A stretch of 19,401 nt of DNA from a virus: UHGV virus genome UHGV-0140152. One strand, 5' to 3'. The notes under the pieces are model-generated. The model saw only the letters and a list, made by a program, of their open reading frames with translations, did not search any database and was not told the origin of the DNA. This document shows positions 1 to 19,345 of this stretch, one piece after another. Position 1 is the stretch's first letter. Each line of letters opens with the position of its first letter. Both the position numbers and the translations under genes were made by a program.

Positions 1-126
1 CTGGCTCCGCGTAAGATGCGCTTCGGCATCTCCGAAGGTATGGTGATGGCTGCTGGCCCCGGCGGGAAAGATATCTTCCTGTTAAGCCCGGATGCTGGTG
101 CTAAACCTGGCCACCAGGTTAAGTAA
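1..126 (+). CDS. metG: methionine--tRNA ligase, 3' end only (gene starts upstream of window)
   Basis: Frame-1 translation [41 protein letters not shown] then TAA at 124-126; matches the MetRS C-terminus as I remember it. Confidence 0.75.
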
Positions 127-699: not shown

Positions 700-1560
700 T
701 ATCAATAAGTTATAGTTGTTTATACAAACCAGAAAACAACTGAATAACAGATCAATGAAACCTCAACACTTTCACCCGATTTGGTCTAAAAAATTGACGT
801 TTTCACACATCACTTCTTATACCCGCAATTCTACGCAGCAGACAGCGCCACAGCGTCCAATTTTCACCACAGACGACTCAACACACTACCAACAAAAACA
901 CACGCTCAAAATCGCTCCCGTTGCGTTACACAACCATATAAACAACTTATTTTCAGGAATAACAAAACAACTAAATAACACATGCGCCATTCCCAAAAAC
1001 AACCAACCTCTTTATGGCAGGCTACCGAAAAGACCCACCTCTTCTTCCCAGGCTACCGGACAACCAACCTAACTTTCACAGGCAATACGAAAACATTCAT
1101 GCGCGCGATACCCACGACACGCCATTCCCCAAACAGCGAAGAAACACCAGAATCACTGAAACCCCAACGAAGCCTGTTACCGCAAGGATTCTCTCAATCC
1201 CAAAAGACACGAAACATAACAATCACGGGAAACGCCATTACCCAATACACGAATAACCACAAAAGCCTTTCACACACTCCAGACAAACAACTCAAACACA
1301 ATAACGAAAGGAATCGCCCACCTGCCATTACTCCATACACGGAGAAAAACAATCACCAAAACGACGAGAACACCCCATAGAAGAACCACCGCAAAACGAA
1401 CGAAACCATTTACACCGACAGAGAGAACAACACACCCAATTCACCAACAGAATTAGTCGCCGTATAGAACGTTCTGGAAGGAGTGAGCATTAACGTCCAT
1501 AGAGAGGTTGAGACAGATAAAACACGAAGAAAACACAACATGTATAGCGAAGAAGCCAGG
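700..1560 (+). other. about 850-bp non-coding tract, A+C-rich and G-poor on the plus strand
   Basis: Strong strand compositional skew. The only ORFs are overlapping low-complexity P/T/N/Q-rich frames with no RBS. Contains degenerate roughly 30-bp repeats starting caggctaccg (about 1017-1083). Confidence 0.6.
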
Positions 1561-1580
1561 TATGTATAAGTGGGGAGGGA

Positions 1581-1606
1581 AGGAGGGGTGTCGCCTCCTT
1601 TTTCGT
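1581..1606 (+). terminator. putative intrinsic terminator ending the AC-rich tract
   Basis: AGGAGG ggtgtcg CCTCCT hairpin followed by TTTTT. Confidence 0.5.
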
Positions 1607-1690
1607 ATTTATTCAACTCCTGATTTTATCCCCCGTAACACCCCTACGGTCAGCCTTCGGTCCATACAGGGGAAAGGCTGCATCCCGCTA

Positions 1691-1802
1691 CAGAAACGGC
1701 TGGATTGCCTTCGGGGAACGGCTGGAGGCTTTCAGGGAGACGGTCGAGTTGCCTTTGTGGGTTTCGGGAAAAGGCTCGATGCCGGTTCAGGAACGGCGGC
1801 GT
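1691..1802. repeat. iteron-like array, 5 degenerate copies of GRAACGGC at about 22-bp spacing
   Basis: cagaaacggctgg / gggaacggctgg / gagacggtcg / gaaaaggctcg / ggaacggcgg. The same core recurs four times at 7971-8085. Confidence 0.55.
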
Positions 1803-2165
1803 ACAGGTATAGCGAGAGGGAGAGTTGCGGCTACCCACCTGTAATGTGCGGGAAGAAGAGAGACGCTCACGTGCAGGTGAACTTACTTACCGCTGGATTC
1901 CCTCTGAATGCCCAGCTACAGCGTAATTGTGCCAGACAGTCAGCGGGTCACAATCGATTTCAGTAGGTTTTCGGGGAGAGGATTATTCTGTCCACCAGCC
2001 ACCTTCGGCCACTAAATCAGAATAATGTAAAAAGTGTACTCGGTACTGAACCTGAAAAATCACTGCCAAAACCACATTCACCGGAATAAAATCCTTTTTC
2101 GCCTTTGCGTTATTGCGATAATAACACCAACAAGAAAACAACGTGTTTAGGCAAAGGAGAAATAC

Positions 2166-3582: not shown

Positions 3583-3661
3583 TACCCGATAATAATTTGT
3601 TTTCTACCTTATCTGATTTGTGAAAATGATTTCACTGAAGCAACTTAATAAGGAAAAAATC

Positions 3662-5440: not shown

Positions 5441-6160
5441 ATGAGTGCGCGTCTTAAGAAGCTTATCAAAAAGCGTAAATCTCTTAAAGAACATGCAGAA
5501 TTGATAAATTTAATTGAAAAACGTTTTCCAGTCATTTCGGATATTGAGGACTTCTATTGGGTGGAGAAATGTAAAGTTTGGGATGGCATTGATGATGTAA
5601 AAGATGTGGATGATTTTGTCAGCAAGTACAACCCAGACATTAACTACAAACTAGCTGATGATTTTGCTGGCTCGTCTAAAGATGATCCGCTTCCTGATTG
5701 GTTTAACATTGATGATTATCCTAGTTGCATGTGTACCACCTACACCAACAAAGATTTTAGTAAAGCGTGGTTTGCTATTGCTTATGGCTGTTATTTCAAT
5801 AAGTCCGACGGAAGCAAAAGACCATATTTTCTCGCTGAAATAGACTTAACCAGCGGAGAGATTACAGTACACGAAAACCACAGGAATCTAATGAAGCTTG
5901 TTGATAGCGTTCGCGTACTGGATACAGACGCCCAGCAATTAACGAACAATGCATGGTTCGGACTTGATGGAGTAAAAGGGGGTATCGAACTGATAATGGG
6001 TCATCTTTTAAATGAATACTCGGACTGGTATCATCCGCCACACAATCCGCTTGAGTCATTTGACGATCCGCTTGAGCCATTTGACGATCCGCTGAAGGAC
6101 TACATCGATGAACCAATATATATGATGGAATCTTTTCAATTAGATATGATTCCAGCATGA
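5441..6160 (+). CDS. highly acidic hypothetical protein (239 aa); distant paralog of 8856..9503
   Basis: Track ORF; AAGGAG RBS. Shares ...DFSKAWF...FLAEIDLTSGEITV... and NPLESFDD with the minus-strand protein at 8856..9503. Confidence 0.75.
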   Translation: MSARLKKLIKKRKSLKEHAELINLIEKRFPVISDIEDFYWVEKCKVWDGIDDVKDVDDFVSKYNPDINYKLADDFAGSSKDDPLPDWFNIDDYPSCMCTTYTNKDFSKAWFAIAYGCYFNKSDGSKRPYFLAEIDLTSGEITVHENHRNLMKLVDSVRVLDTDAQQLTNNAWFGLDGVKGGIELIMGHLLNEYSDWYHPPHNPLESFDDPLEPFDDPLKDYIDEPIYMMESFQLDMIPA

Positions 6161-6165
6161 CAAAC

Positions 6166-6197
6166 GCCACCAGTTAACGCTGGTGGCTTCAAGTTTT
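6166..6197 (+). terminator. intrinsic terminator
   Basis: GCCACCAG ttaacg CTGGTGGC followed by TTCAAGTTTT. Confidence 0.65.
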
Positions 6198-6199
6198 GC

Positions 6200-6342
6200 T
6201 CTCATCACCTCAGGTCAAATTTCCTCGTTTGCAACCTCAGGTCAATTTAAGAATGATATCACCTGTATCCCTGAACTTACTTCTTTTCTGCCTGTTTCAT
6301 TCAGCGATGATTATTACATCGAAAACAAACGAGGAATTAAAA
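6200..6342 (+). promoter_or_regulatory. cassette leader 2 (homologous to 5205-5440)
   Basis: Two acctcaggtcaa repeats, conserved block cctgaacttacttcttttctgcctgtttcattcagcgat and GAGGA RBS. Confidence 0.55.
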
Positions 6343-7269
6343 ATGAAACCAGTATTTTTGGGGCGAATTGATATTAGTGAATTGTTTTCAGTTAGAGATG
6401 GGTTCCAATATGACTGTGATTGCCTTGAACTTAATGGTCTTGAACGTGAATACAGATTGGCTATTGTGAATGATGGTAAGAAGACATTTTCTGTCGAATG
6501 TTTTGAAAATACTTACTTTAAGCAGGTGTTGAGAATAAGACAGCATGTGGAGATGTCAATTCGGGAAAACATCAAAAATAAATGTGAGTTTCTTGTGGTT
6601 AAAAATGAAGCAGATGAAATAAACTTTGTTACGTTCACTGATAGTGGTCGATTGGCTATGCTGGAGCTATTTCAGCTGATCGTTTCTAATAACAGTATAA
6701 CAGAAGCCTTGAACAGTCTTTCAACTATAGTATCAAGAGAAAGAGAAAACACTGGCGCTTTAATTGTAGAGGAGCTAGATGGAATACTCGAGAAGATCAA
6801 GAATAAAGAGCTGATTATAGAATATGGCAAGGAAAGTAGGAAAAATAATTTACATTCAGCTTTTCACTCCCCATATGTTGAGCGTTTGAATGGTTTGGCT
6901 GCTTTTGTTAATTTGGACTTTAATAGATTTTTTAGTTCTTTTTTTACAGAGTGTGGGCTTGTTATTGTTGAGGTAAATAATGAGAACGATGTCCCCAAAA
7001 TTATAGTACATTCGATGCCTGATATATCTCTCAATGAAATTGGGGACAAACTGGAGAATTTATACGATGTAAAAAGCATGGAAGAACTCATAGAGTATCT
7101 GGCCATAAATGCGGTAGCCATGGCTGATAATGATGTGTTTGGGGTTGGTGCACTGCATGAAGGTTTTCTTGACGCCCTTGAGCTTTACGGGACTGCTCGC
7201 TGGTTTCTGTCAGGATTAGTGGATGATGCACCTTTACTCATCAATACAGATTATTTTTATTCCAGTTGA
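6343..7269 (+). CDS. hypothetical protein (308 aa)
   Basis: In-frame ATG within track ORF 6196..7269, placed after the conserved leader and GAGGA RBS. No family recognised. Confidence 0.7.
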   Translation: MKPVFLGRIDISELFSVRDGFQYDCDCLELNGLEREYRLAIVNDGKKTFSVECFENTYFKQVLRIRQHVEMSIRENIKNKCEFLVVKNEADEINFVTFTDSGRLAMLELFQLIVSNNSITEALNSLSTIVSRERENTGALIVEELDGILEKIKNKELIIEYGKESRKNNLHSAFHSPYVERLNGLAAFVNLDFNRFFSSFFTECGLVIVEVNNENDVPKIIVHSMPDISLNEIGDKLENLYDVKSMEELIEYLAINAVAMADNDVFGVGALHEGFLDALELYGTARWFLSGLVDDAPLLINTDYFYSS

Positions 7270-7300: not shown

Positions 7301-7472
7301 TGACCATCCTGTCTCCCGCAGGCTAAAAACACCAACCTCTTACCTCCAGGCAACCGACAAACCCACCTGTTCCCGTCCGGCTACCGCAACTTTCCACTTT
7401 GACGCCTTATTCGTACAACCATAATTAACACCAACAAGAGAACAATTTGTTATTTAGAATAAGGAATCAATC

Positions 7473-7955
7473 ATGAATTTTATCGCTACTGTAAACGCAC
7501 CCGCACATGGCAATATCGCTGTAACGTTCTCTGACACTGAAAAACGAGTACTTGGTGCATGGCGCGACAATGAGACGGTAGAACTGTCAGCACAAGAAAA
7601 ATGCATTATTGCACGCGACATCATTGGCAATCGTCGTTACTCGCGGGTATTTGAGAAAGCGTATGTGGTAAATTCTGGGTTCGGAACGTTCGTCTTTCCG
7701 GTGCGCTCCGGGCGATTCTGCCAGTCCAAGCTGATTGAGTTCGCTACGCAGATTTCTGTCTGGATTAAAACTCAATCGTCGTTCAAATTTTCCGACGATG
7801 AAGCAGTATCGCAGGGGATGCGGATCGCCAACAATGCAATTAAATGCAAAAACATTACGTATACCGCTGGCGTTGACACATGGAGACTGTTTTGCGCTAA
7901 CTTTATGCTGAATGTATACGCAAGCAACCGCATCCACATCCTTGATGGCGTGTAA
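7473..7955 (+). CDS. hypothetical protein (160 aa)
   Basis: Track ORF; AAGGAA RBS; leader shares taacaccaacaagagaacaatttgtt with the 2166 gene. Confidence 0.7.
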   Translation: MNFIATVNAPAHGNIAVTFSDTEKRVLGAWRDNETVELSAQEKCIIARDIIGNRRYSRVFEKAYVVNSGFGTFVFPVRSGRFCQSKLIEFATQISVWIKTQSSFKFSDDEAVSQGMRIANNAIKCKNITYTAGVDTWRLFCANFMLNVYASNRIHILDGV

Positions 7956-7970
7956 CTGAGAAGAGGGCCA

Positions 7971-8085
7971 GAAACGGCCCTTTCTCTATAGCCACCAGCT
8001 GCCGCAGGGAAATTTTCAGAAACGGCTAGGAACGCATTCATGAGCCGACGGGAAACGGCCAGGATTTTTTCGGGAAACGGCTACA
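7971..8085. repeat. iteron-like array, 4 copies of GAAACGGC
   Basis: GAAACGGC at about 7973, 8021, 8054 and 8076; the same core as the 1691-1802 array. The first copy sits in the loop of a GGGCC...GGCCC hairpin. Confidence 0.55.
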
Positions 8086-8207
8086 TTTGCCTTTATGTAG
8101 AAAAAACATCGGGAAGCTGGTGGAATCCAATCAGCGGTTGTCGGACAGGTGAGCGGGGAAAATCATTATGACTCTCGTCACCTGAGACATCCAGATTTCT
8201 TTCATAG

Positions 8208-8260: not shown

Positions 8261-8429
8261 TAATACGCGAGCGGATACGGAACAAAACAAAATGCAGATT
8301 CGCGCCGACAAATAAACGCGGATCATAAAGCAAGACTAAAAGCCAATGATTAACTATGCGCTATAGCGCAATATAACGCATTTTAAGCGCGTTAATGTGT
8401 TAAGTAATGGGTATGTACTGGCAAGGATA

Positions 8430-8570
8430 TAAAAGCGCGTCCATGGCGTTATTTTGGCGCTTATTTTTATGTTGTTGGAGTGAGTTAAAGACAATAAAAA
8501 AGCGCCATCATTGGCGCGTTATGGTGGGAGTATTGGAAACGAAAAAAGCGCCCATAGTGGGCGCTCGATT
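8430..8570. repeat. tandem GC-stem hairpins of the GCGCC(C)A-N-TGGGCGC family
   Basis: gcgccatcattggcgc and gcgcccatagtgggcgc, each flanked by A/T runs; plausibly bidirectional terminators. Confidence 0.5.
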
Positions 8571-8801
8571 TTATTTATGTAAACTGATTTCAAATCCCAT
8601 TTCTACAAACGCTTTTAACATTAAAAATATATCAGCGTCGTTCACGTCTGCTTTTTTCCGCTCCTGGTCGCTCAATAAGTCAATTTTGCGCGTCGTTTCG
8701 TCTATAAGCTCGACTGCGCGCCCAGCGTAACCAGCGATCCCAGCGATGCGATTAACATAATATTCATTATGGACGTTAACGCCAGCGATTAAAATAATCA
8801 T
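8571..8801 (-). CDS. small hypothetical protein (76 aa)
   Basis: Track ORF; AAGGAG RBS on the minus strand immediately after the 8824-8841 hairpin. Confidence 0.6.
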   Translation of the reverse strand: MIILIAGVNVHNEYYVNRIAGIAGYAGRAVELIDETTRKIDLLSDQERKKADVNDADIFLMLKAFVEMGFEISLHK

Positions 8802-8823
8802 GCTTTAAAAACTCCTTTAAATG

Positions 8824-8841
8824 CGCCCATATTTGGGCGCA
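8824..8841. repeat. hairpin GCGCCCATATTTGGGCGC (identical copy at 9577-9594)
   Basis: Perfect 7-bp stem between the stop of 8856..9503 and the RBS of 8571..8801. Confidence 0.6.
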
Positions 8842-8855
8842 TGATTTATATGGTA

Positions 8856-9503
8856 TTATTCAAAATATGGAAATGCAGAATTTTCTTCATGATCTAATAC
8901 GAAAGTTTTTTCATTAATATAATTTGGCGCATTATCGCCAAATGATTCTAGTGGTTCGAGATGATTGAAATCATCTTTTTTAATAAAGTAGGATATATAA
9001 TAGATACCATCGTGTAAATCAGCCAAACCACACCAAATATAATAGCCAATAGGATAACATGCAGGACCACGATTCACATAAACTGTAATTTTTCCGCTTA
9101 ATAAATCCATCTCAGCAAAAAAAGCTAATCCGCTTTTTTCCTCTTCTCCTTCTTTTTCTCTGATTTTTCCGTTTAGAACGTCAGCACTTTGAATAAACCA
9201 CGCTCTAGTAAAATCCGCGTTAACATATGTAGCAAATTCGCCAAAGTCGCAATTTTTGCGCAAGTTGGGTAAATCCTCGATTAAATCGAGATTGATATTT
9301 AATTGCGCTGTATTTTCAGCAATAATTAGCTCTGCTTTCGTTAATTCCGTGTTATTAAATTCTGGCTTTTTTTCTGGTAATTTGTGCACTACTTCTTTGA
9401 TTTTGTCAGCGAATTTAATTTTTGATTTAATCAATGGAAGACGAGATTCAGCCATCTCTACGAAAGCAGAGATAAAAGATTCGCAAACAGTAAAAGTTTT
9501 CAT
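8856..9503 (-). CDS. hypothetical protein (215 aa); distant paralog of 5441..6160
   Basis: Track ORF; GAGGAA RBS. Shares ...DFTRAWF...FFAEMDLLSGKITV... and EPLESFGD with 5441..6160. Confidence 0.75.
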   Translation of the reverse strand: MKTFTVCESFISAFVEMAESRLPLIKSKIKFADKIKEVVHKLPEKKPEFNNTELTKAELIIAENTAQLNINLDLIEDLPNLRKNCDFGEFATYVNADFTRAWFIQSADVLNGKIREKEGEEEKSGLAFFAEMDLLSGKITVYVNRGPACYPIGYYIWCGLADLHDGIYYISYFIKKDDFNHLEPLESFGDNAPNYINEKTFVLDHEENSAFPYFE

Positions 9504-9607: not shown

Positions 9608-10258
9608 TTACGCTTTAAAAGCATCAGCTAGATAATTGTAGAAATCTTTTTTAATGAAGCGATATTGTTGAGTACCAGCTTTGGCGCTTCCCATTCCTTT
9701 GACTTTCTCAACAAGTCCGAGACGTTCGCAAAGATTGATTAGCTGGTTAGCTTGAGTATAGCCAGCGTCTAAGCGTAAATCATTTGCTCGCTTAACTTCA
9801 TTCATTAAATCAAAAACAGCGCCATTAGTAAAAACTTCTACTTCGTCTTTGATCATGTGAACAAGTGCAAACACGCGTGATCCGCTCATATCGTCTTTGG
9901 AGTACTCGCATTTACCAGCTTTGATAGATTTAACCAGATAAACTAATTTTTCCAGTGAGTAACTGTTAGTCATCGCTTCGCGGAAAAACACTTCTGGTGC
10001 TTGTTTGCTTGCTTTAATCGCAAAGTAAAACACAGCAGACAATTTTTCGTCGTTAACAGCAGACAAAATGTTATTAGAGAAATATTTTAACTTTGTAGAA
10101 GCAGCGCGAAGATTATCTTTATCGTTTTTGGTCAGCGCGCCAGTGCTATTAAGAAGTTCATTCTTTTGCCCCAAGTCGTTAGCTTTTGCACCCAGCTCAG
10201 CAGCAACAATATTAGCAGCTTCAACGATGTTTTTTTTAGATAATATAATGTTGGTCAT
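9608..10258 (-). CDS. hypothetical protein (216 aa)
   Basis: Track ORF; AGGA RBS about 9 nt upstream on the minus strand. No family recognised. Confidence 0.7.
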   Translation of the reverse strand: MTNIILSKKNIVEAANIVAAELGAKANDLGQKNELLNSTGALTKNDKDNLRAASTKLKYFSNNILSAVNDEKLSAVFYFAIKASKQAPEVFFREAMTNSYSLEKLVYLVKSIKAGKCEYSKDDMSGSRVFALVHMIKDEVEVFTNGAVFDLMNEVKRANDLRLDAGYTQANQLINLCERLGLVEKVKGMGSAKAGTQQYRFIKKDFYNYLADAFKA

Positions 10259-10549: not shown

Positions 10550-11113
10550 TTAAAATGGAAGGATTCGGTCAACCCAATCGAAGAGAACAATCATTCTTGC
10601 ATGTTCCCTGATTTTCATCGTCACCTGACAAGCATCAACGCCTAACGACACTCCCTCTATTTCACGGCCATCCGCCATGTAGACCCTTATAGATCTGCCG
10701 TTTTGATGAGCTTTGCGACATATCTTAAAAAAGTCACGACGTGATGGCTGGTTGTTCACGTAGTCAGGATGTACGGTAAGCCTGTCCGCAAAGTCCCCAT
10801 CTACTTCTGGAGGTATAATCGTTTCTATAGAGCTAACTTTCCCAAGAGGAAGACGAACTCGACGCTCTTTGCTTCTTGGAACGGGTGATAGATCAAGTTT
10901 GTTGCGTGATGGTAGTGTTCCCTGTACATACATGTTGAATACCTGTCCATCTTCCATCGTGACTTTTACAGGAACAGAGTGTGCCCTCCAGAACATCAAG
11001 GTATGTTCCACATTAGAATAGTCTCGCGGCCATACTTCAGCCGGTATGCCGTATGTAATATCTTTCGTCGTCATATCATTATAAAGTGGTTGGCAATATG
11101 TCCATTGTACCAT
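10550..11113 (-). CDS. hypothetical protein (187 aa; possibly 174 aa from an internal ATG at about 11074)
   Basis: Track ORF. The 11113 start overlaps the lipoprotein gene by 35 nt; the alternative ATG lies a few nt after the lipoprotein stop. No clear RBS for either. Confidence 0.55.
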   Translation of the reverse strand: MVQWTYCQPLYNDMTTKDITYGIPAEVWPRDYSNVEHTLMFWRAHSVPVKVTMEDGQVFNMYVQGTLPSRNKLDLSPVPRSKERRVRLPLGKVSSIETIIPPEVDGDFADRLTVHPDYVNNQPSRRDFFKICRKAHQNGRSIRVYMADGREIEGVSLGVDACQVTMKIREHARMIVLFDWVDRILPF

Positions 11114-11514: not shown

Positions 11515-12066
11515 TTAATAGTTAACTTGGGTTCTGTTGTAAATGTCTATTAAGAAATCGTCCTGCTTTATGTTTTTACAGGTTTTGTCGAAGGTTAATT
11601 CACCTGATAATATGCAGGCGTTGTATTTTTCGATAAAAATATTTAATGCCTGCCAATTTTTGAAAAGAAAAGAGAAACCATATGACGACTCGCTGCCGTT
11701 TATCAACCCTCGTGCGCTGGGATATTTGTATAAATTTGAATGTAGCTCTAATTTACCAGGGGCAACGTCGCCACAGGAATTCATAATGACGAACATTTTG
11801 GATATATCAAAAGGATAAAAAACTATGCCGCAATTTGTCCTGTTGCCTTTAATATCCTTCACGTAAATATAGTGCTCGTAACAATCTTTACGCGAGGCAT
11901 TTAACCTGTATTGTATTAGTTTGTGCTCTCCTTTTTGAGAGGGTATTAGGTATCGTGTACGCTTGTCTAAGCAGGATTTCGTCTTTGTACGGTATTGCGA
12001 CATACTGCTCTTTATTTCCGCTGCACTTAGAAAGTTCTCATTAAAAGGCAAATGTCCCATTTGCAC
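11515..12066 (-). CDS. hypothetical protein (183 aa) homologous to the N-terminal domain of the HNH protein at 12312..13292
   Basis: GGAGG RBS 5 nt upstream. ...YGFSFLFKNWQALNIFIEKYNACILSGEL aligns with ...LGYSFAFKNRLSIEMFLITLIDYIDSGKI of the HNH protein. No nuclease motif. Confidence 0.7.
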   Translation of the reverse strand: MQMGHLPFNENFLSAAEIKSSMSQYRTKTKSCLDKRTRYLIPSQKGEHKLIQYRLNASRKDCYEHYIYVKDIKGNRTNCGIVFYPFDISKMFVIMNSCGDVAPGKLELHSNLYKYPSARGLINGSESSYGFSFLFKNWQALNIFIEKYNACILSGELTFDKTCKNIKQDDFLIDIYNRTQVNY

Positions 12067-12152
12067 CTCCGGTTCTTAAGCATAGATAAGCCTACAAAAT
12101 TAATTCAGTCGATCAAGATCTTTTTTCAGCCGGAAGTTTATGTATCAAGAAG

Positions 12153-12168
12153 TGTGATCAAGTTCACA
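12153..12168. promoter_or_regulatory. perfect CRP-consensus-like palindrome TGTGA-N6-TCACA, about 95 bp upstream of 11515..12066
   Basis: tgtgatcaagttcaca inside a roughly 110-bp segment homologous to 13293-13415. Confidence 0.45.
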
Positions 12169-12311
12169 TACTGCTTTGCCAGAAGAATACCATATGCAAA
12201 ACATTCTATTGCTGTTAAAATTTAATCGTTCAGACATAAGGAAGCCCTATACCCTCGACAAATCTTTCTGGTATTGTCGAGGGCATGTTTCACATTTATA
12301 GGTAGATAGCG

Positions 12312-13292
12312 TTAATTGGTGTTTTTGTTCTTCTCTTTTTTGCTAATTTCATCACATGTAAGGTTCATTATGTCTATGTTTTCTTGCTTTTGAAGGTTGC
12401 CGACAATTTTTTTGCGCAATTCATAAAATCGCTCGCGTGGTATAGCTTCCTTGTTGCCGTTGATGTGAAGTATTGCGTGACAGCTAGGGCAGACGGCAAT
12501 CAGATCTGTTTTTGGGTTCACGCTTCGTGCATCTTCGCCTTGTGAAAGTGGGACGATGTGGTGAGCGTGTAGCAGCGTTTTCGTTTCTTTGCCGTCAATT
12601 TCCTTGCCGTATATTTCCGACATCGTTCTGCAACATAATTGACACCTGTAGTCTGCGTTTGCCAGAACGTCATTCCTTAACCCGGATACGCGGCTACGAT
12701 GTTGCGACTGGATTAATCTTGTTTCGCCCTCTATATATTCCTCAACTTCTTCTTTCTGGAGGTCGTAGCTGATTTCTTCTTGAGTCGGATGGACTTTTTT
12801 GTATAGAAGATCAAGATATTTAATGTCCTCTGTTATATATTTGGAATCCTCTAGCGAGGATATTTTTCCTGAGTCTATGTAGTCAATTAATGTAATAAGG
12901 AACATCTCTATCGATAGCCTGTTTTTAAAGGCAAACGAATATCCAAGATGTCTTCTATCTCCTGAATGAATTGGCGTCCAATGAGATTTCTCAATTTTTT
13001 GTGGTGTTACGCAGATACCTTTGCCGATATTGTTTACATGTTCCAATAATTGATAAACAGAATTAATGCGGTAAGCATGTGTTACTAAAGAATTTATTTT
13101 TCTTGTGCCGACGGAGGATTTTGTCATAACAACATGATGAGATATTTGTTTTTTTAAAATCAAATCATACGATGTAGCTTTTTGGTTTTCGCCTTTGTCG
13201 GTTTTTTTTATTAAATTTAGTTTTTTATTAGAGGCTATTTTCTCTATTTCTTCTCTAACTTCTTTTATCGTCATGTAAGTTTCTTTTGTCAT
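12312..13292 (-). CDS. HNH endonuclease, McrA-like C-terminal domain with an unrecognised N-terminal domain (326 aa)
   Basis: C-terminus YRCQLCC...LLHAHHIVPLSQGEDARSVNPKTDLIAVCPSCHAILH is an HNH motif with two Cys pairs, arranged like McrA. AT-rich gene. Confidence 0.8.
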   Translation of the reverse strand: MTKETYMTIKEVREEIEKIASNKKLNLIKKTDKGENQKATSYDLILKKQISHHVVMTKSSVGTRKINSLVTHAYRINSVYQLLEHVNNIGKGICVTPQKIEKSHWTPIHSGDRRHLGYSFAFKNRLSIEMFLITLIDYIDSGKISSLEDSKYITEDIKYLDLLYKKVHPTQEEISYDLQKEEVEEYIEGETRLIQSQHRSRVSGLRNDVLANADYRCQLCCRTMSEIYGKEIDGKETKTLLHAHHIVPLSQGEDARSVNPKTDLIAVCPSCHAILHINGNKEAIPRERFYELRKKIVGNLQKQENIDIMNLTCDEISKKEKNKNTN

Positions 13293-15976: not shown

Positions 15977-16675
15977 GTGGATTGTAGCAATAAAATGGAT
16001 GTAAAAATTACGATTTTGCAGGTTGATGTTGCCAACCTTCGCCCGAATACCTGGAACACCAATTCGGTTGGTGCGCAGAATTTTGAAAAACTGAAAGGTT
16101 CTATCGAAAAATTAGGCTTTTTTAAACCAATTTTGGCTCGTGAAATTGAAGATGGATTTTTTGAAATCCTCGGTGGCGAACATCGCTGGCGTGCCGCTAT
16201 TGAGCAAGGAATTTCAACGGTTCCAGTGCTTTCTGTGGGCAAAATTAGCGATGTCGTAGCTAAACAGATGTCACTGGTGGACAACGAGCGATATGGTGAA
16301 GACGACCAAATCGCATTGCAACGCTTCATTGAAGAAATTCAGTCAGAACTTGACTATCAACTGTCTGAAATCGCCCCGTATGACGACGAAATCTCGATGG
16401 TTTTAGCAAAAGAGGCGGCAATCGACCTTGAAGCACTGGAGGCGTTGTCTCGTGGTAGTGATGAGCCTGTCGATACCGACAAACGAGAGAAAACCGAACG
16501 TGTGGGGGCGGAACATCAGACCATGCGCTTCAAAGTAACTTTCGATGCGTCAGATCGTGTTGCAGAAACCATAAAAAACATCATCAAAGAGCAGGCTATT
16601 AACACCGGTAATGAAATGGAGAACGCTGGTGAGGCTCTGGTGTGGCTGGTCGACTACTACAAGGAGCGTATGTAA
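15977..16675 (+). CDS. ParB/Srx-like N-terminal domain protein (about 226-232 aa)
   Basis: ParB-box-like motif ILGGEHRWRAAIEQG. The track start at 15977 is GTG; an alternative ATG lies at 15995; no strong RBS for either. Confidence 0.7.
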   Translation: MDCSNKMDVKITILQVDVANLRPNTWNTNSVGAQNFEKLKGSIEKLGFFKPILAREIEDGFFEILGGEHRWRAAIEQGISTVPVLSVGKISDVVAKQMSLVDNERYGEDDQIALQRFIEEIQSELDYQLSEIAPYDDEISMVLAKEAAIDLEALEALSRGSDEPVDTDKREKTERVGAEHQTMRFKVTFDASDRVAETIKNIIKEQAINTGNEMENAGEALVWLVDYYKERM

Positions 16676-17343
16676 TGACCAAAAAGTTTGAAATCGTATA
16701 TCGCGACCCGGCAGATCTTATTCCCTATGAGATGAATGCCAAAAAGCATGATGAACAGCAGATCCGAGATCTGGCCGCAGCCATTAAAAAGCGCGGATTT
16801 GACCAGCCAATTACGGTCGATAAGAACGACGTAATTATTACTGGCCACGGCCGCCGTGAGGCTGCAATTTTTGCTGGACTTGAGCGCGTACCGGTTATTG
16901 TTCGCGATGATCTCAGTGATGACGAGGTTCGTGCGAAGCGCCTTGAAGATAACCGACTTGCCAGCATTGATTACGATGCAATTAAGCTACAGAAAGAGCT
17001 TGAGTCGCTTGTTCTGGACGATATCGAGGTTTTCGGCTTTGAAGAGCGTGAGTTGAATGTTCTCGTTGGCAGCATGACAGAAGAAATGGACACCGACTCG
17101 CTAGTTATCGATCTGGGCGAAGAAACTAAACGACAGAAGGATGAACACACCGAGATCAGTCGTGAAGTTGCAGCGGAAGAAGTACGTGTTGTCGACGTAT
17201 TGGGCTTTAAAACGCTCCCTGCTGGCTCTGCCATTGTTGTTGGTGATTTGCTTGCCCACATGGAAGAAATGACGAGAGAAAGCGGGGTAGACGCATTTGT
17301 GGCATATGCGGAGAAGATCTCTTCCGGGGAGATGGCTGCATGA
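16675..17343 (+). CDS. second ParB/Srx-like domain protein (222 aa)
   Basis: Motif IITGHGRREAAIFAG. Preferred start is the ATG at 16675 within track ORF 16642..17343, 8 nt after AAGGAG and overlapping the upstream stop by 1 nt. Acidic C-terminal half. Confidence 0.75.
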   Translation: MTKKFEIVYRDPADLIPYEMNAKKHDEQQIRDLAAAIKKRGFDQPITVDKNDVIITGHGRREAAIFAGLERVPVIVRDDLSDDEVRAKRLEDNRLASIDYDAIKLQKELESLVLDDIEVFGFEERELNVLVGSMTEEMDTDSLVIDLGEETKRQKDEHTEISREVAAEEVRVVDVLGFKTLPAGSAIVVGDLLAHMEEMTRESGVDAFVAYAEKISSGEMAA

Positions 17344-18005
17344 GCAAATACATCATCAACGTATCGTTTCAGACACGCGTAAATAAAACCACGCGCACGT
17401 TGGAAATCGCTGAGTCGTTCGGGCTTGGCCTGGACGAAAAAGAGTGGACGCTTTACGACAATCTGGAGCTGGAAGTGAAGCAGGGCGATGTGGTGTACAT
17501 CACCGGCCAATCCGGTTCAGGTAAATCCGTTGTGTTGCGCGAGCTGCAACGCCAGATGAAGGATGAAGGGCTTTCTGTAGCTTCTATTGATGACTTTACC
17601 TTCGATAATGAGGTTAACGTCATTGACCAACTGGGCAAAACTACCAGTGATGCGCTTGGGTTGTTATCTATGGCAGGTCTGAACGATGCATATCTGTTTG
17701 TTCGCAAGCCTTCTGAAATGTCAGACGGTCAGAAATATCGTCTCAAGATTGCCAAACTGATTGAGTCAGGCGCTAAAGTGTGGGCTGCTGACGAGTTCGG
17801 TGCTGTTCTCGATCGTGTAACCGCTCAGGTTGTGGCATCTAACCTCCAGCGTGCCGCTCGAAAGGTTGGTGCGACGGTAATGGTGGCGACGACTCACGAA
17901 GACTTGAAGAACGCGCTGCGCCCGGATATGCAGATCACCAAGCACTACAAAGAACGCGTGAAGGTGGAGTATCACAATGGTAGTCATGATGAGGCTCATT
18001 CATGA
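17340..18005 (+). CDS. stand-alone ABC-type ATPase, nucleotide-binding domain only (221 aa)
   Basis: Walker A GQSGSGKS, signature-like SDGQKYR, Walker B plus D-loop VWAADEFGAVLD, H-loop ATTHE. No permease gene nearby; start overlaps the upstream stop. Confidence 0.8.
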   Translation: MSKYIINVSFQTRVNKTTRTLEIAESFGLGLDEKEWTLYDNLELEVKQGDVVYITGQSGSGKSVVLRELQRQMKDEGLSVASIDDFTFDNEVNVIDQLGKTTSDALGLLSMAGLNDAYLFVRKPSEMSDGQKYRLKIAKLIESGAKVWAADEFGAVLDRVTAQVVASNLQRAARKVGATVMVATTHEDLKNALRPDMQITKHYKERVKVEYHNGSHDEAHS

Positions 18006-19282: not shown

Positions 19283-19345
19283 CAGTAAACAAGTTGGTTA
19301 ATAGATGCAGTAAACAAGTTGTTTTAGAGCGCATGGACGCGCTCT
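19283..19345 (+). promoter_or_regulatory. direct repeats and operator-like palindromes upstream of the next gene
   Basis: cagtaaacaagttg twice; the second copy forms AAACAAGTTGTTT, identical to the palindrome at about 2686-2699. Followed by the hairpin AGAGCGC-atggac-GCGCTCT. Confidence 0.45.

Follow-up and report, generated by a model that had tools for sequence, protein, structure and literature searches.

A conserved pair of phased, iteron-like repeat arrays flanking the early-gene block of an SSU5-type phage-plasmid

The stretch of virus genome UHGV-0140152 analyzed here (19,401 nucleotides, hereafter the window) is, judging from its sequence, part of an Escherichia coli phage-plasmid of the SSU5/pHCM2/pMT1 family, which comprises elements of approximately 100-120 kilobases (kb). 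It contains two arrays of short direct repeats with the common core word GGGAAACGGC, positioned on either side of a block of early genes. The arrays very probably function at the DNA level as phased protein-binding sites, a reading that is favored because of their strand-uniform phasing at 22 base pairs (bp), the preservation of the cores over the spacers, the change of copy number in whole units, and the absence of any sign of an RNA or coding function. Their most likely use, proposed tentatively, is that of an origin-type module for the element's own replisome.

Array 1 comprises six plus-strand units of the form (C/T)RGGRAAMGGC at positions 1669-1797, in which the 8-mer G-R-A-R-M-G-G-Y starts at 1671, 1693, 1715, 1737, 1768, and 1790, giving spacings of 22, 22, 22, 31, and 22 bp. 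A preliminary description of this DNA had listed five copies at 1691-1802 with a spacing of roughly 22 bp; units 2-6 are indeed located there, while the unit lying 22 bp earlier (1671) had been missed, and the spacing applies to all gaps except the one of 31 bp. The second array that had been announced is found at 8005-8081, likewise on the plus strand, with full units having the 8-mer at 8019, 8052, and 8074 (spacing 33 and 22 bp) and a degenerate half-unit (CAGGGAAATTTT) at the left edge (8005-8016), and hence three or four copies. The two arrays can be aligned with each other over a 54-bp double unit. A sequence logo built from 58 units reads (C/T)-R-G-G-R-A-A-M-G-G-C, after which come a weaker Y-R-G and, at +14/+15, a patch rich in C; the invariance in this logo is partly due to how the units were chosen. 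The clustering of the motif was far above that of shuffled sequences, confirming that the array is real and that its motif is enriched over background: the strict word GRAACGGC occurs seven times in the window compared to 0.94 expected, a number reached in 0 of 200 shuffles, and all seven matches fall inside the two arrays. Using a degenerate pattern, five matches were found within 130 bp, compared to a maximum of two in 500 dinucleotide-preserving shuffles. In the closest complete relative, plasmid pRM9975-1 (120 kb), which has the same layout as the window, the two arrays account for 7 of the 12 GRAACGGC matches.

Both arrays are part of a common layout, in which a terminator is followed after 40-70 bp by the phased units and then by a closing GTATAG/TATACAG/TATGTAG element, the latter being found after both arrays in all lineages. 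At array 1, a Rho-independent terminator-like hairpin with a T-run (1577-1603, plus strand), kept in all relatives, is situated approximately 65 bp upstream of the units. The intervening sequence harbors a leader box, ATTTTATCCCCCGTAAC...CACCCCT.CGGTCAGCCTTCGG.CCAT (1606-1668, plus strand), which in alignments is mostly invariant in Escherichia, Salmonella, and Enterobacter and partly deleted in Klebsiella, and the array is closed by GTACAG-GTATAG (1801-1812, plus strand). At array 2, the corresponding hairpin (7958-7986, plus strand) serves as terminator for the gene upstream (7473-7955). The sequence GAAACGGCC is found in the loop and 3' arm of the hairpin, and the motif at 7971, which had been counted as the first 'copy' of array 2, is thus a part of this hairpin; relatives have GGGGC-TGGAAAC-GCCCC at this location, followed by TTTCTTTT. 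A Chi site (GCTGGTGG; 7992-7999, minus strand), kept in Escherichia, Yersinia, Salmonella, and Klebsiella sequences, lies between terminator and units, and the closing element is TTTGCCTTTATGTAG (8086-8100, plus strand).

Both arrays were found in relatives from E. coli, Salmonella (SSU5, pHCM2), Klebsiella, Enterobacter, and Citrobacter, including lineages whose neighboring proteins share only 65-73% identity. Array 2 was furthermore detected in the divergent lineages L172 and L176 and in Yersinia pestis pMT1; in the latter, other sequence around an IS1541 insertion has taken the place of the array-1 region. Among 85 relatives from IMG/VR, the two arrays share a strand and are separated by 1.4-4.1 kb, compared to 6.2 kb in the window. 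The copy number of array 1 ranges from 2 to 7 in these relatives, and the 22-bp spacing clearly dominates (412 of approximately 700 gaps). In phage Cyrano, the arrays are located at approximately 95.3-95.5 and 98.95-99.1 kb. Copy number among relatives differs in whole units of 22 or 44 bp, and an independent cross-genus alignment had 78% invariant columns in the cores vs 49% in the spacers. The block of genes between the arrays, running from the g2166 homolog to phrog_1641, is the same in all lineages examined, although its gene content varies.

The location of array 1 outside any credible coding region, as claimed in the preliminary description, was borne out. Two open reading frames (ORFs), at 1508-1966 on the plus strand and 1650-1838 on the minus strand, overlap the array, and the hypothetical ORFs CYRAN_104 and SSU5_109 are annotated over it in some GenBank records, whereas RefSeq annotates nothing there. 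These were excluded, and a coding role rejected, because close relatives differ by whole 22- and 44-bp indels inside the overlapping frames. A role at the RNA level, be it as a repeat-containing non-coding RNA, a CsrB-like protein sponge, or a signal for antitermination or processing, would be in line with all copies being found on the strand of the flanking transcription direction and with the GGA present in many units. Such a role is nevertheless very improbable: approximately 30% of the units lack GGA, the array region has no match in Rfam, its folding is no better than that of shuffles on either strand (z = +1.2 and +0.1), and the RNAalifold covariation term is positive (+1.77), with many pairs broken across relatives. 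No promoter was found for array 1, which is positioned downstream of the terminator at 1577-1603, and in the LF82/Cyrano lysogen transcriptomes CYRAN_104 was near the detection floor (PMC9928086, supplement). Array 1 is the only one of the two at which expression was measured, and it was near-silent in lysogens. A structured RNA was rejected on the basis of the Rfam, folding, covariation, and lysogen expression results.

The word and period of the arrays recur in a different kind of replicon. When 2.9 million viral contigs were scanned for pairs of the motif at a distance of 22 bp, 78 loci were returned, of which approximately 70 were SSU5-like. Two of the other matching contigs, L027 and L086, are lambdoid prophages, each with five 22-bp-phased GAAACGGC-N6-GCCGAAT units followed by TATACAGATC repeats. 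The repeats lie within a lambda-O-like initiator gene (phrog_9773; 'replication initiation O-like' PHROGs) that adjoins genes encoding CII-like and CI-like proteins, which is the classical arrangement of a lambda-type origin. The array 1 unit at 1693 (GAAACGGCTGGATTGCC) and the L027 iteron (GAAACGGCAGTATTGCC) are identical at 15 of 17 positions, in register. Iterons of the GGAAAC type with 22-bp phasing, followed by ATACAG repeats, were furthermore found within genes of Klebsiella phage ST405-OXA48phi1.2, Providencia phage PSTRCR_117lys (where the gene is annotated as 'DNA replication protein O'), and coliphage mEp390. The N-terminal, presumed iteron-binding domain of the L027/L086 initiator recurs in these three phages and, more distantly, in staphylococcal phage initiators, and a further contig (L085) has GGAAACG(G/C) repeats within a DnaD-like helicase-loader gene. 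The in-gene iterons and their ATACAG(ATC) repeats are located at 887-1040 in L027, 10700-10990 (minus strand) in L086, 1858-2121 in L178, and 1875-2041 in L179. Among the O-like initiators, including the mEp390 relatives, the iterons co-vary in sequence with the N-terminal domain, providing a compact set of sequences from which the specificity of this family may be read.

The at least four phased iterons of about 19-22 bp that mark lambda-O-type origins thus have their counterpart here, with six units in array 1 and three in array 2 sharing the core of L027 and L086. The same word and period hence serve as origin iterons in a known kind of replicon, which by sequence is a resemblance and not a membership. 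The earlier label 'iteron-like' is apt insofar as near-identical iterons occur in lambda-O-like origins, with the qualification that the repeats are not RepA iterons and that no cognate initiator was detected. The matching lambdoid origin is rare among E. coli genomes (7 of 5,426), so regular cross-talk with lambdoid prophages is unlikely, and cross-talk was rejected as an explanation for this reason.

As an origin-type module, the arrays would be cis-acting, head-to-tail sites at intervals of two helical turns, recognized by a sequence-specific DNA-binding protein that the element itself encodes. Arranged along one face of the helix, this protein would form a higher-order nucleoprotein complex, and the terminator at each module would provide protection from read-through transcription. 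The replisome encoded by the element (DnaE, a DnaB-like helicase, primase, and SSB) would then start lytic-mode replication at the arrays, apart from the RepA plasmid origin, and the two arrays could be regarded as analogous to the paired oriL and oriR of phage SPP1. This use was chosen because of the match to O-type iterons, the paired arrangement, the terminator shielding, and the fact that no lytic origin has been described; the assignment is kept tentative because neither an initiator nor a clear unwinding element was detected.

Several observations weigh against an origin. No DnaA box, IHF site, or GATC cluster adjoins the arrays, and an origin of the DnaA type was rejected on these grounds. 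The GC skew of the full plasmid gives no origin signal and follows gene orientation. The surroundings lack a clear AT-rich unwinding element: the GC content in 200-bp windows is 0.49-0.575 over array 1 (1501-1900) and approximately 0.49-0.50 over array 2 (7901-8200), a local level of 50-57%, and AT-richer stretches near the arrays are short (1605-1630 and 8086-8110). The arrays are intergenic rather than embedded in an initiator gene, their units are conserved one-sidedly, with a strong left and a weak right half, vs the dyad iterons of O-type origins, and the spacing of array 2 is irregular (33/34 and 22 bp). No homolog of the O/DnaD-like N-terminal domain was found in pRM9975-1 or the window, using tblastn as well as two hidden Markov models (HMMs) against ORFs in six frames. 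A profile-profile comparison of the O-like domain with a winged-helix candidate from the element (phrog_1513, see below) using hhalign was likewise negative, though a relative at the fold level is still conceivable. An O-like initiator encoded by the element was rejected on the combined tblastn, HMM, and hhalign results. Moreover, the replication gene set resembles one of the T4/T5-like type driven by recombination or R-loops, with a UvsW-like helicase, a weak UvsY-like PHROG match, and SbcCD-like genes, and such a set may need no iteron-binding initiator; phrog_2500 and other neighbors in the replication module had no informative Pfam or PHROG match. Finally, the position of the arrays flanking the early-gene block would suit a regulatory role equally well.

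A rather improbable variant is that the arrays are orphan O-type iterons, either forming a second lytic origin fired by a new initiator unrelated in sequence to O/DnaD (e.g. phrog_1513), or serving as decoys that capture the initiator of a co-resident lambdoid phage with GGAAACGGC specificity. If true, the phage-plasmid would use these sites to alternate between two replication systems or to interfere with them.

The main rival to the origin-type module, and a possible though less likely one, is a regulatory or architectural boundary, with a repressor or silencer bound to both arrays looping or insulating the early block of 1.4-6.3 kb, or acting as a roadblock that reinforces the terminators, thereby controlling genes for early functions or host takeover, be it in lysogeny or at the start of infection. 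The constant bracketing of the same block would be expected of such a boundary, as would the identical orientation of both arrays, each downstream of a terminator, and the weak expression of most block genes in lysogens. A conserved winged-helix protein and an FljA-like regulator are moreover encoded just right of the arrays. The former, a 216-residue protein of phrog_1513 (9608-10258, minus strand), is the first gene right of array 2 that is conserved family-wide. This family-restricted protein, which earlier lacked a DNA-binding annotation, is predicted to comprise an N-terminal long helical hairpin and a C-terminal winged helix, making it a candidate binder of the arrays. The latter (10550-11113, minus strand; Pfam Flag1_repress, E=1e-70) is kept across the whole phage-plasmid family and is a homolog of FljA, the Salmonella phase-1 flagellin repressor. 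Against a boundary stands the lack of any promoter overlap, as array 1 ends approximately 300 bp ahead of the first promoter and array 2 is situated in a convergent terminator zone. The motif is furthermore not used by any known repressor, and the early genes have their own conserved operator, AACAANNTTGTT, at each promoter. This palindrome belongs to a conserved promoter/operator cassette, GATAATAACACCAACAAGAAAACAAnnTGTTT, found upstream of many small rightward genes (212-273, 2108-2150, 2660-2700, 3590-3605, 7420-7455, and 19313-19323) as well as upstream of the ParA-like gene in pRM9975-1. The repeated cassettes suggest, at the level of sequence, that one repressor governs many early units, and they may also drive gene shuffling, the inter-array gene content varying between 1.4 and 6.3 kb.

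Centromere-like segregation sites, where a binding protein would coat both clusters and couple to a partition NTPase, are a doubtful explanation. Centromeres of this general kind are known from parC of R1 and pB171, from tubC-TubR, and in dispersed form from the phage-plasmid N15, and the winged-helix fold of phrog_1513 also matches TubR. The type Ib ParA-like ATPase of the element and its 117-residue partner are, however, encoded approximately 40 kb from the arrays, and the ParB-like genes are 8-14 kb away. The latter are two tandem genes for proteins with a ParB/Srx N-domain, followed by one for a soluble ABC-type ATPase (15977-18005), and are divergent from the gene for a UvsW-like DEAD-box helicase; the trio is kept in all relatives including pMT1. 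The preliminary description had named the ParB-like proteins as possible binders, a suggestion that did not hold. They contain the ParB/Srx N-domain with a GGEHRWRAA box, but both C-terminal halves are acidic, as is the segment aligned to the helix-turn-helix of Spo0J, and no recognizable helix-turn-helix was found; they were rejected as array binders on this basis. Nor do the arrays offer the palindromic site of 14-16 bp characteristic of ParB-parS and Noc-NBS, the units being direct repeats. A TTTC-N2/3-GAAA pseudo-dyad in the arrays is out of register with what we take to be the parS/NBS geometry, and the array core CGGGAAAC resembles what are presumably ParB/Noc half-sites, a likeness of little weight given the direct repeats and proteins without a reading head. 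The retention of array 2 in pMT1 is uninformative in this respect, the divergence being too recent.

The preliminary description had suggested an array for origin-binding, packaging, or transcription-factor proteins, and while phased binding sites are the reading favored here, packaging is unlikely. A terminase recognition site (pac or cosB-like), with the small terminase subunit on the phased repeats, is highly improbable despite phased repeats and intrinsic bending being typical of pacL and cosB, as the terminase genes are 10-14 kb away with no motif in or beside them. Chi sites are found nearby, but GCTGGTGG is over-represented in general, with 9 sites in the window against approximately 0.6 expected (1992, 2526, 2580, 6179, 7286, 7992, 8116, 14579, and 19060) and 21 in the 120-kb relative against 3.7. 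The proximity is thus not specific, and the Chi site near array 2 was rejected as a marker of a DNA end.

Additional RepA-binding sites, controlling copy number by handcuffing with the plasmid origin as in P1 incA, appear the least probable of the alternatives. Such sites would share the 22-bp period of the RepA iterons, and relatives have a single TATAGAGAG-like sequence after array 1 that resembles a RepA iteron; this was judged coincidental. In pRM9975-1, the RepA iterons (ATCCACTATAGAGAG-type; ATCCACTATAGAGAGC repeats) flank repA approximately 36 kb from the arrays, and they have no core in common with the array sequence GGGAAAMGGC (GGGAAACGGC). Scanning the whole plasmid for the RepA iteron pattern gave repA-flanking matches at 855 and 119713-120157 and two further ones at 2475 and 2595 inside IS3-like (IS1203) copies, none being near either array. 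The arrays were therefore rejected as RepA iterons owing to their unrelated sequence and distant location. In the literature searched on SSU5/pHCM2-type plasmids, iterons are described at the RepA origin only, as is the case for SSU5-like (IncpKPHS1) plasmids (PMC6735626), and no origin other than that of RepA is annotated.

The family assignment of the window is based on nucleotide searches, in which the region 1400-2200 matched 218 of 5,426 complete E. coli genomes, with every match being plasmid-borne, as well as phages Cyrano, PhiR41_1, and SSU5 and Klebsiella SSU5-like phages. Matches to this region were also obtained in 775 plasmid records, which come from Klebsiella, Escherichia, Enterobacter, Yersinia, Salmonella, Citrobacter, and Cronobacter. 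The order in pRM9975-1 begins with captured apbC-metG, a gene-free stretch of 1.5 kb, a block of small rightward genes, and a convergent gap. It continues with leftward genes, including those encoding the FljA-like regulator and the UvsW-like DEAD-box helicase, and then the two ParB/Srx-domain proteins and the ABC-type ATPase, with terminase and structural genes lying beyond the window. The first 125 bases of the window are the 3' end of the plasmid-borne metG; the phage-plasmid carries a full-length host-like metG (methionyl-tRNA synthetase) together with apbC/mrp, located upstream in relatives (L001, 3533-6824). Genes at 5441-7269, 8856-9503, and 11515-13292 are missing from pRM9975-1, and the early region of the window is unusually large because of these extra genes. 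They encode, among others, proteins of 239, 357, 215, and 183 residues that match either no family at all or just a PHROG of unknown function, as well as a protein with an HNH-endonuclease domain (12312-13292).

Two further non-coding stretches stand out. The first (720-1440, plus strand) is strongly A/C-rich and G/T-poor, with a GC skew of approximately -0.45 and an AT skew of up to +0.65, has no credible ORF, is unannotated in RefSeq relatives, and ends ahead of the terminator at 1577-1603. A short box within it, ACCCACCTCTTCC..., is kept across genera, and CYRAN_103, which overlaps the stretch, is expressed at floor level in lysogens. The stretch could represent a transcript confined to the lytic cycle that loads Rho or acts like a protein sponge, or an element functioning at the DNA level. 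The second, in the convergent intergenic zone right of array 2 (8400-8860), contains several near-identical GC hairpins (AAAAAGCGCC-CATAnTGG-GCGC, followed by T-runs), which from their sequence look like stacked terminators or REP-like repeats.

Phage-plasmids of the SSU5/pHCM2/pMT1 type are frequently encountered in clinical Enterobacterales and count the plague plasmid pMT1 among their number; more and more of them are seen to carry resistance genes. The family-wide array pair provides a concrete handle on either lytic replication or early-gene control in these elements, and an origin function of the arrays would explain induction-dependent bursts in copy number that affect gene dosage and transduction.

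Iteron-like arrays are as such of a known kind, while the pair described here is an orphan one, present family-wide, undescribed in the searchable literature, and built on a word common to an unrelated initiator family. When compared to known systems, the IncFIB(pHCM2)/IncpKPHS1 RepA iterons are also 22-bp phased direct repeats on the same replicon, but they flank repA, are accompanied by DnaA-box-like and GATC-rich sequences, and are unrelated in sequence. The R1 parC, pB171 parC1/parC2, tubC-TubR, and N15 systems likewise have two clusters of short phased direct repeats, with cooperative binding being a property of theirs, and centromeres of the R1 parC, pB171, and tubC type adjoin their partition operon, whereas the arrays are approximately 40 kb from the operon for the ParA-like ATPase and its 117-residue partner. 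SPP1 has two separated direct-repeat clusters, oriL and oriR, bound by a single origin-binding protein (G38P), as is proposed for the phage-plasmid, and its own helicase and primase. Its oriL, in contrast, lies inside gene 38 and both of its origins have adjacent AT-rich regions, and the likeness is one of arrangement. The O-like origins (phi80 gp15, 'replication protein O', or DnaD-like) differ in being located in the initiator gene and in having clear dyads (CGGC-N-GCCGAAT) followed by AT-rich GATC repeats, whereas the arrays are intergenic and asymmetric, with no clear AT-rich tract, no GATC tract, and no O-like protein detected. With these origins, the arrays nevertheless have in common the GGAAACGGC core, the 22-bp period, 4-6 copies on the same strand, a partial GCC at +14..16, and a TATA(C)AG after the last unit.
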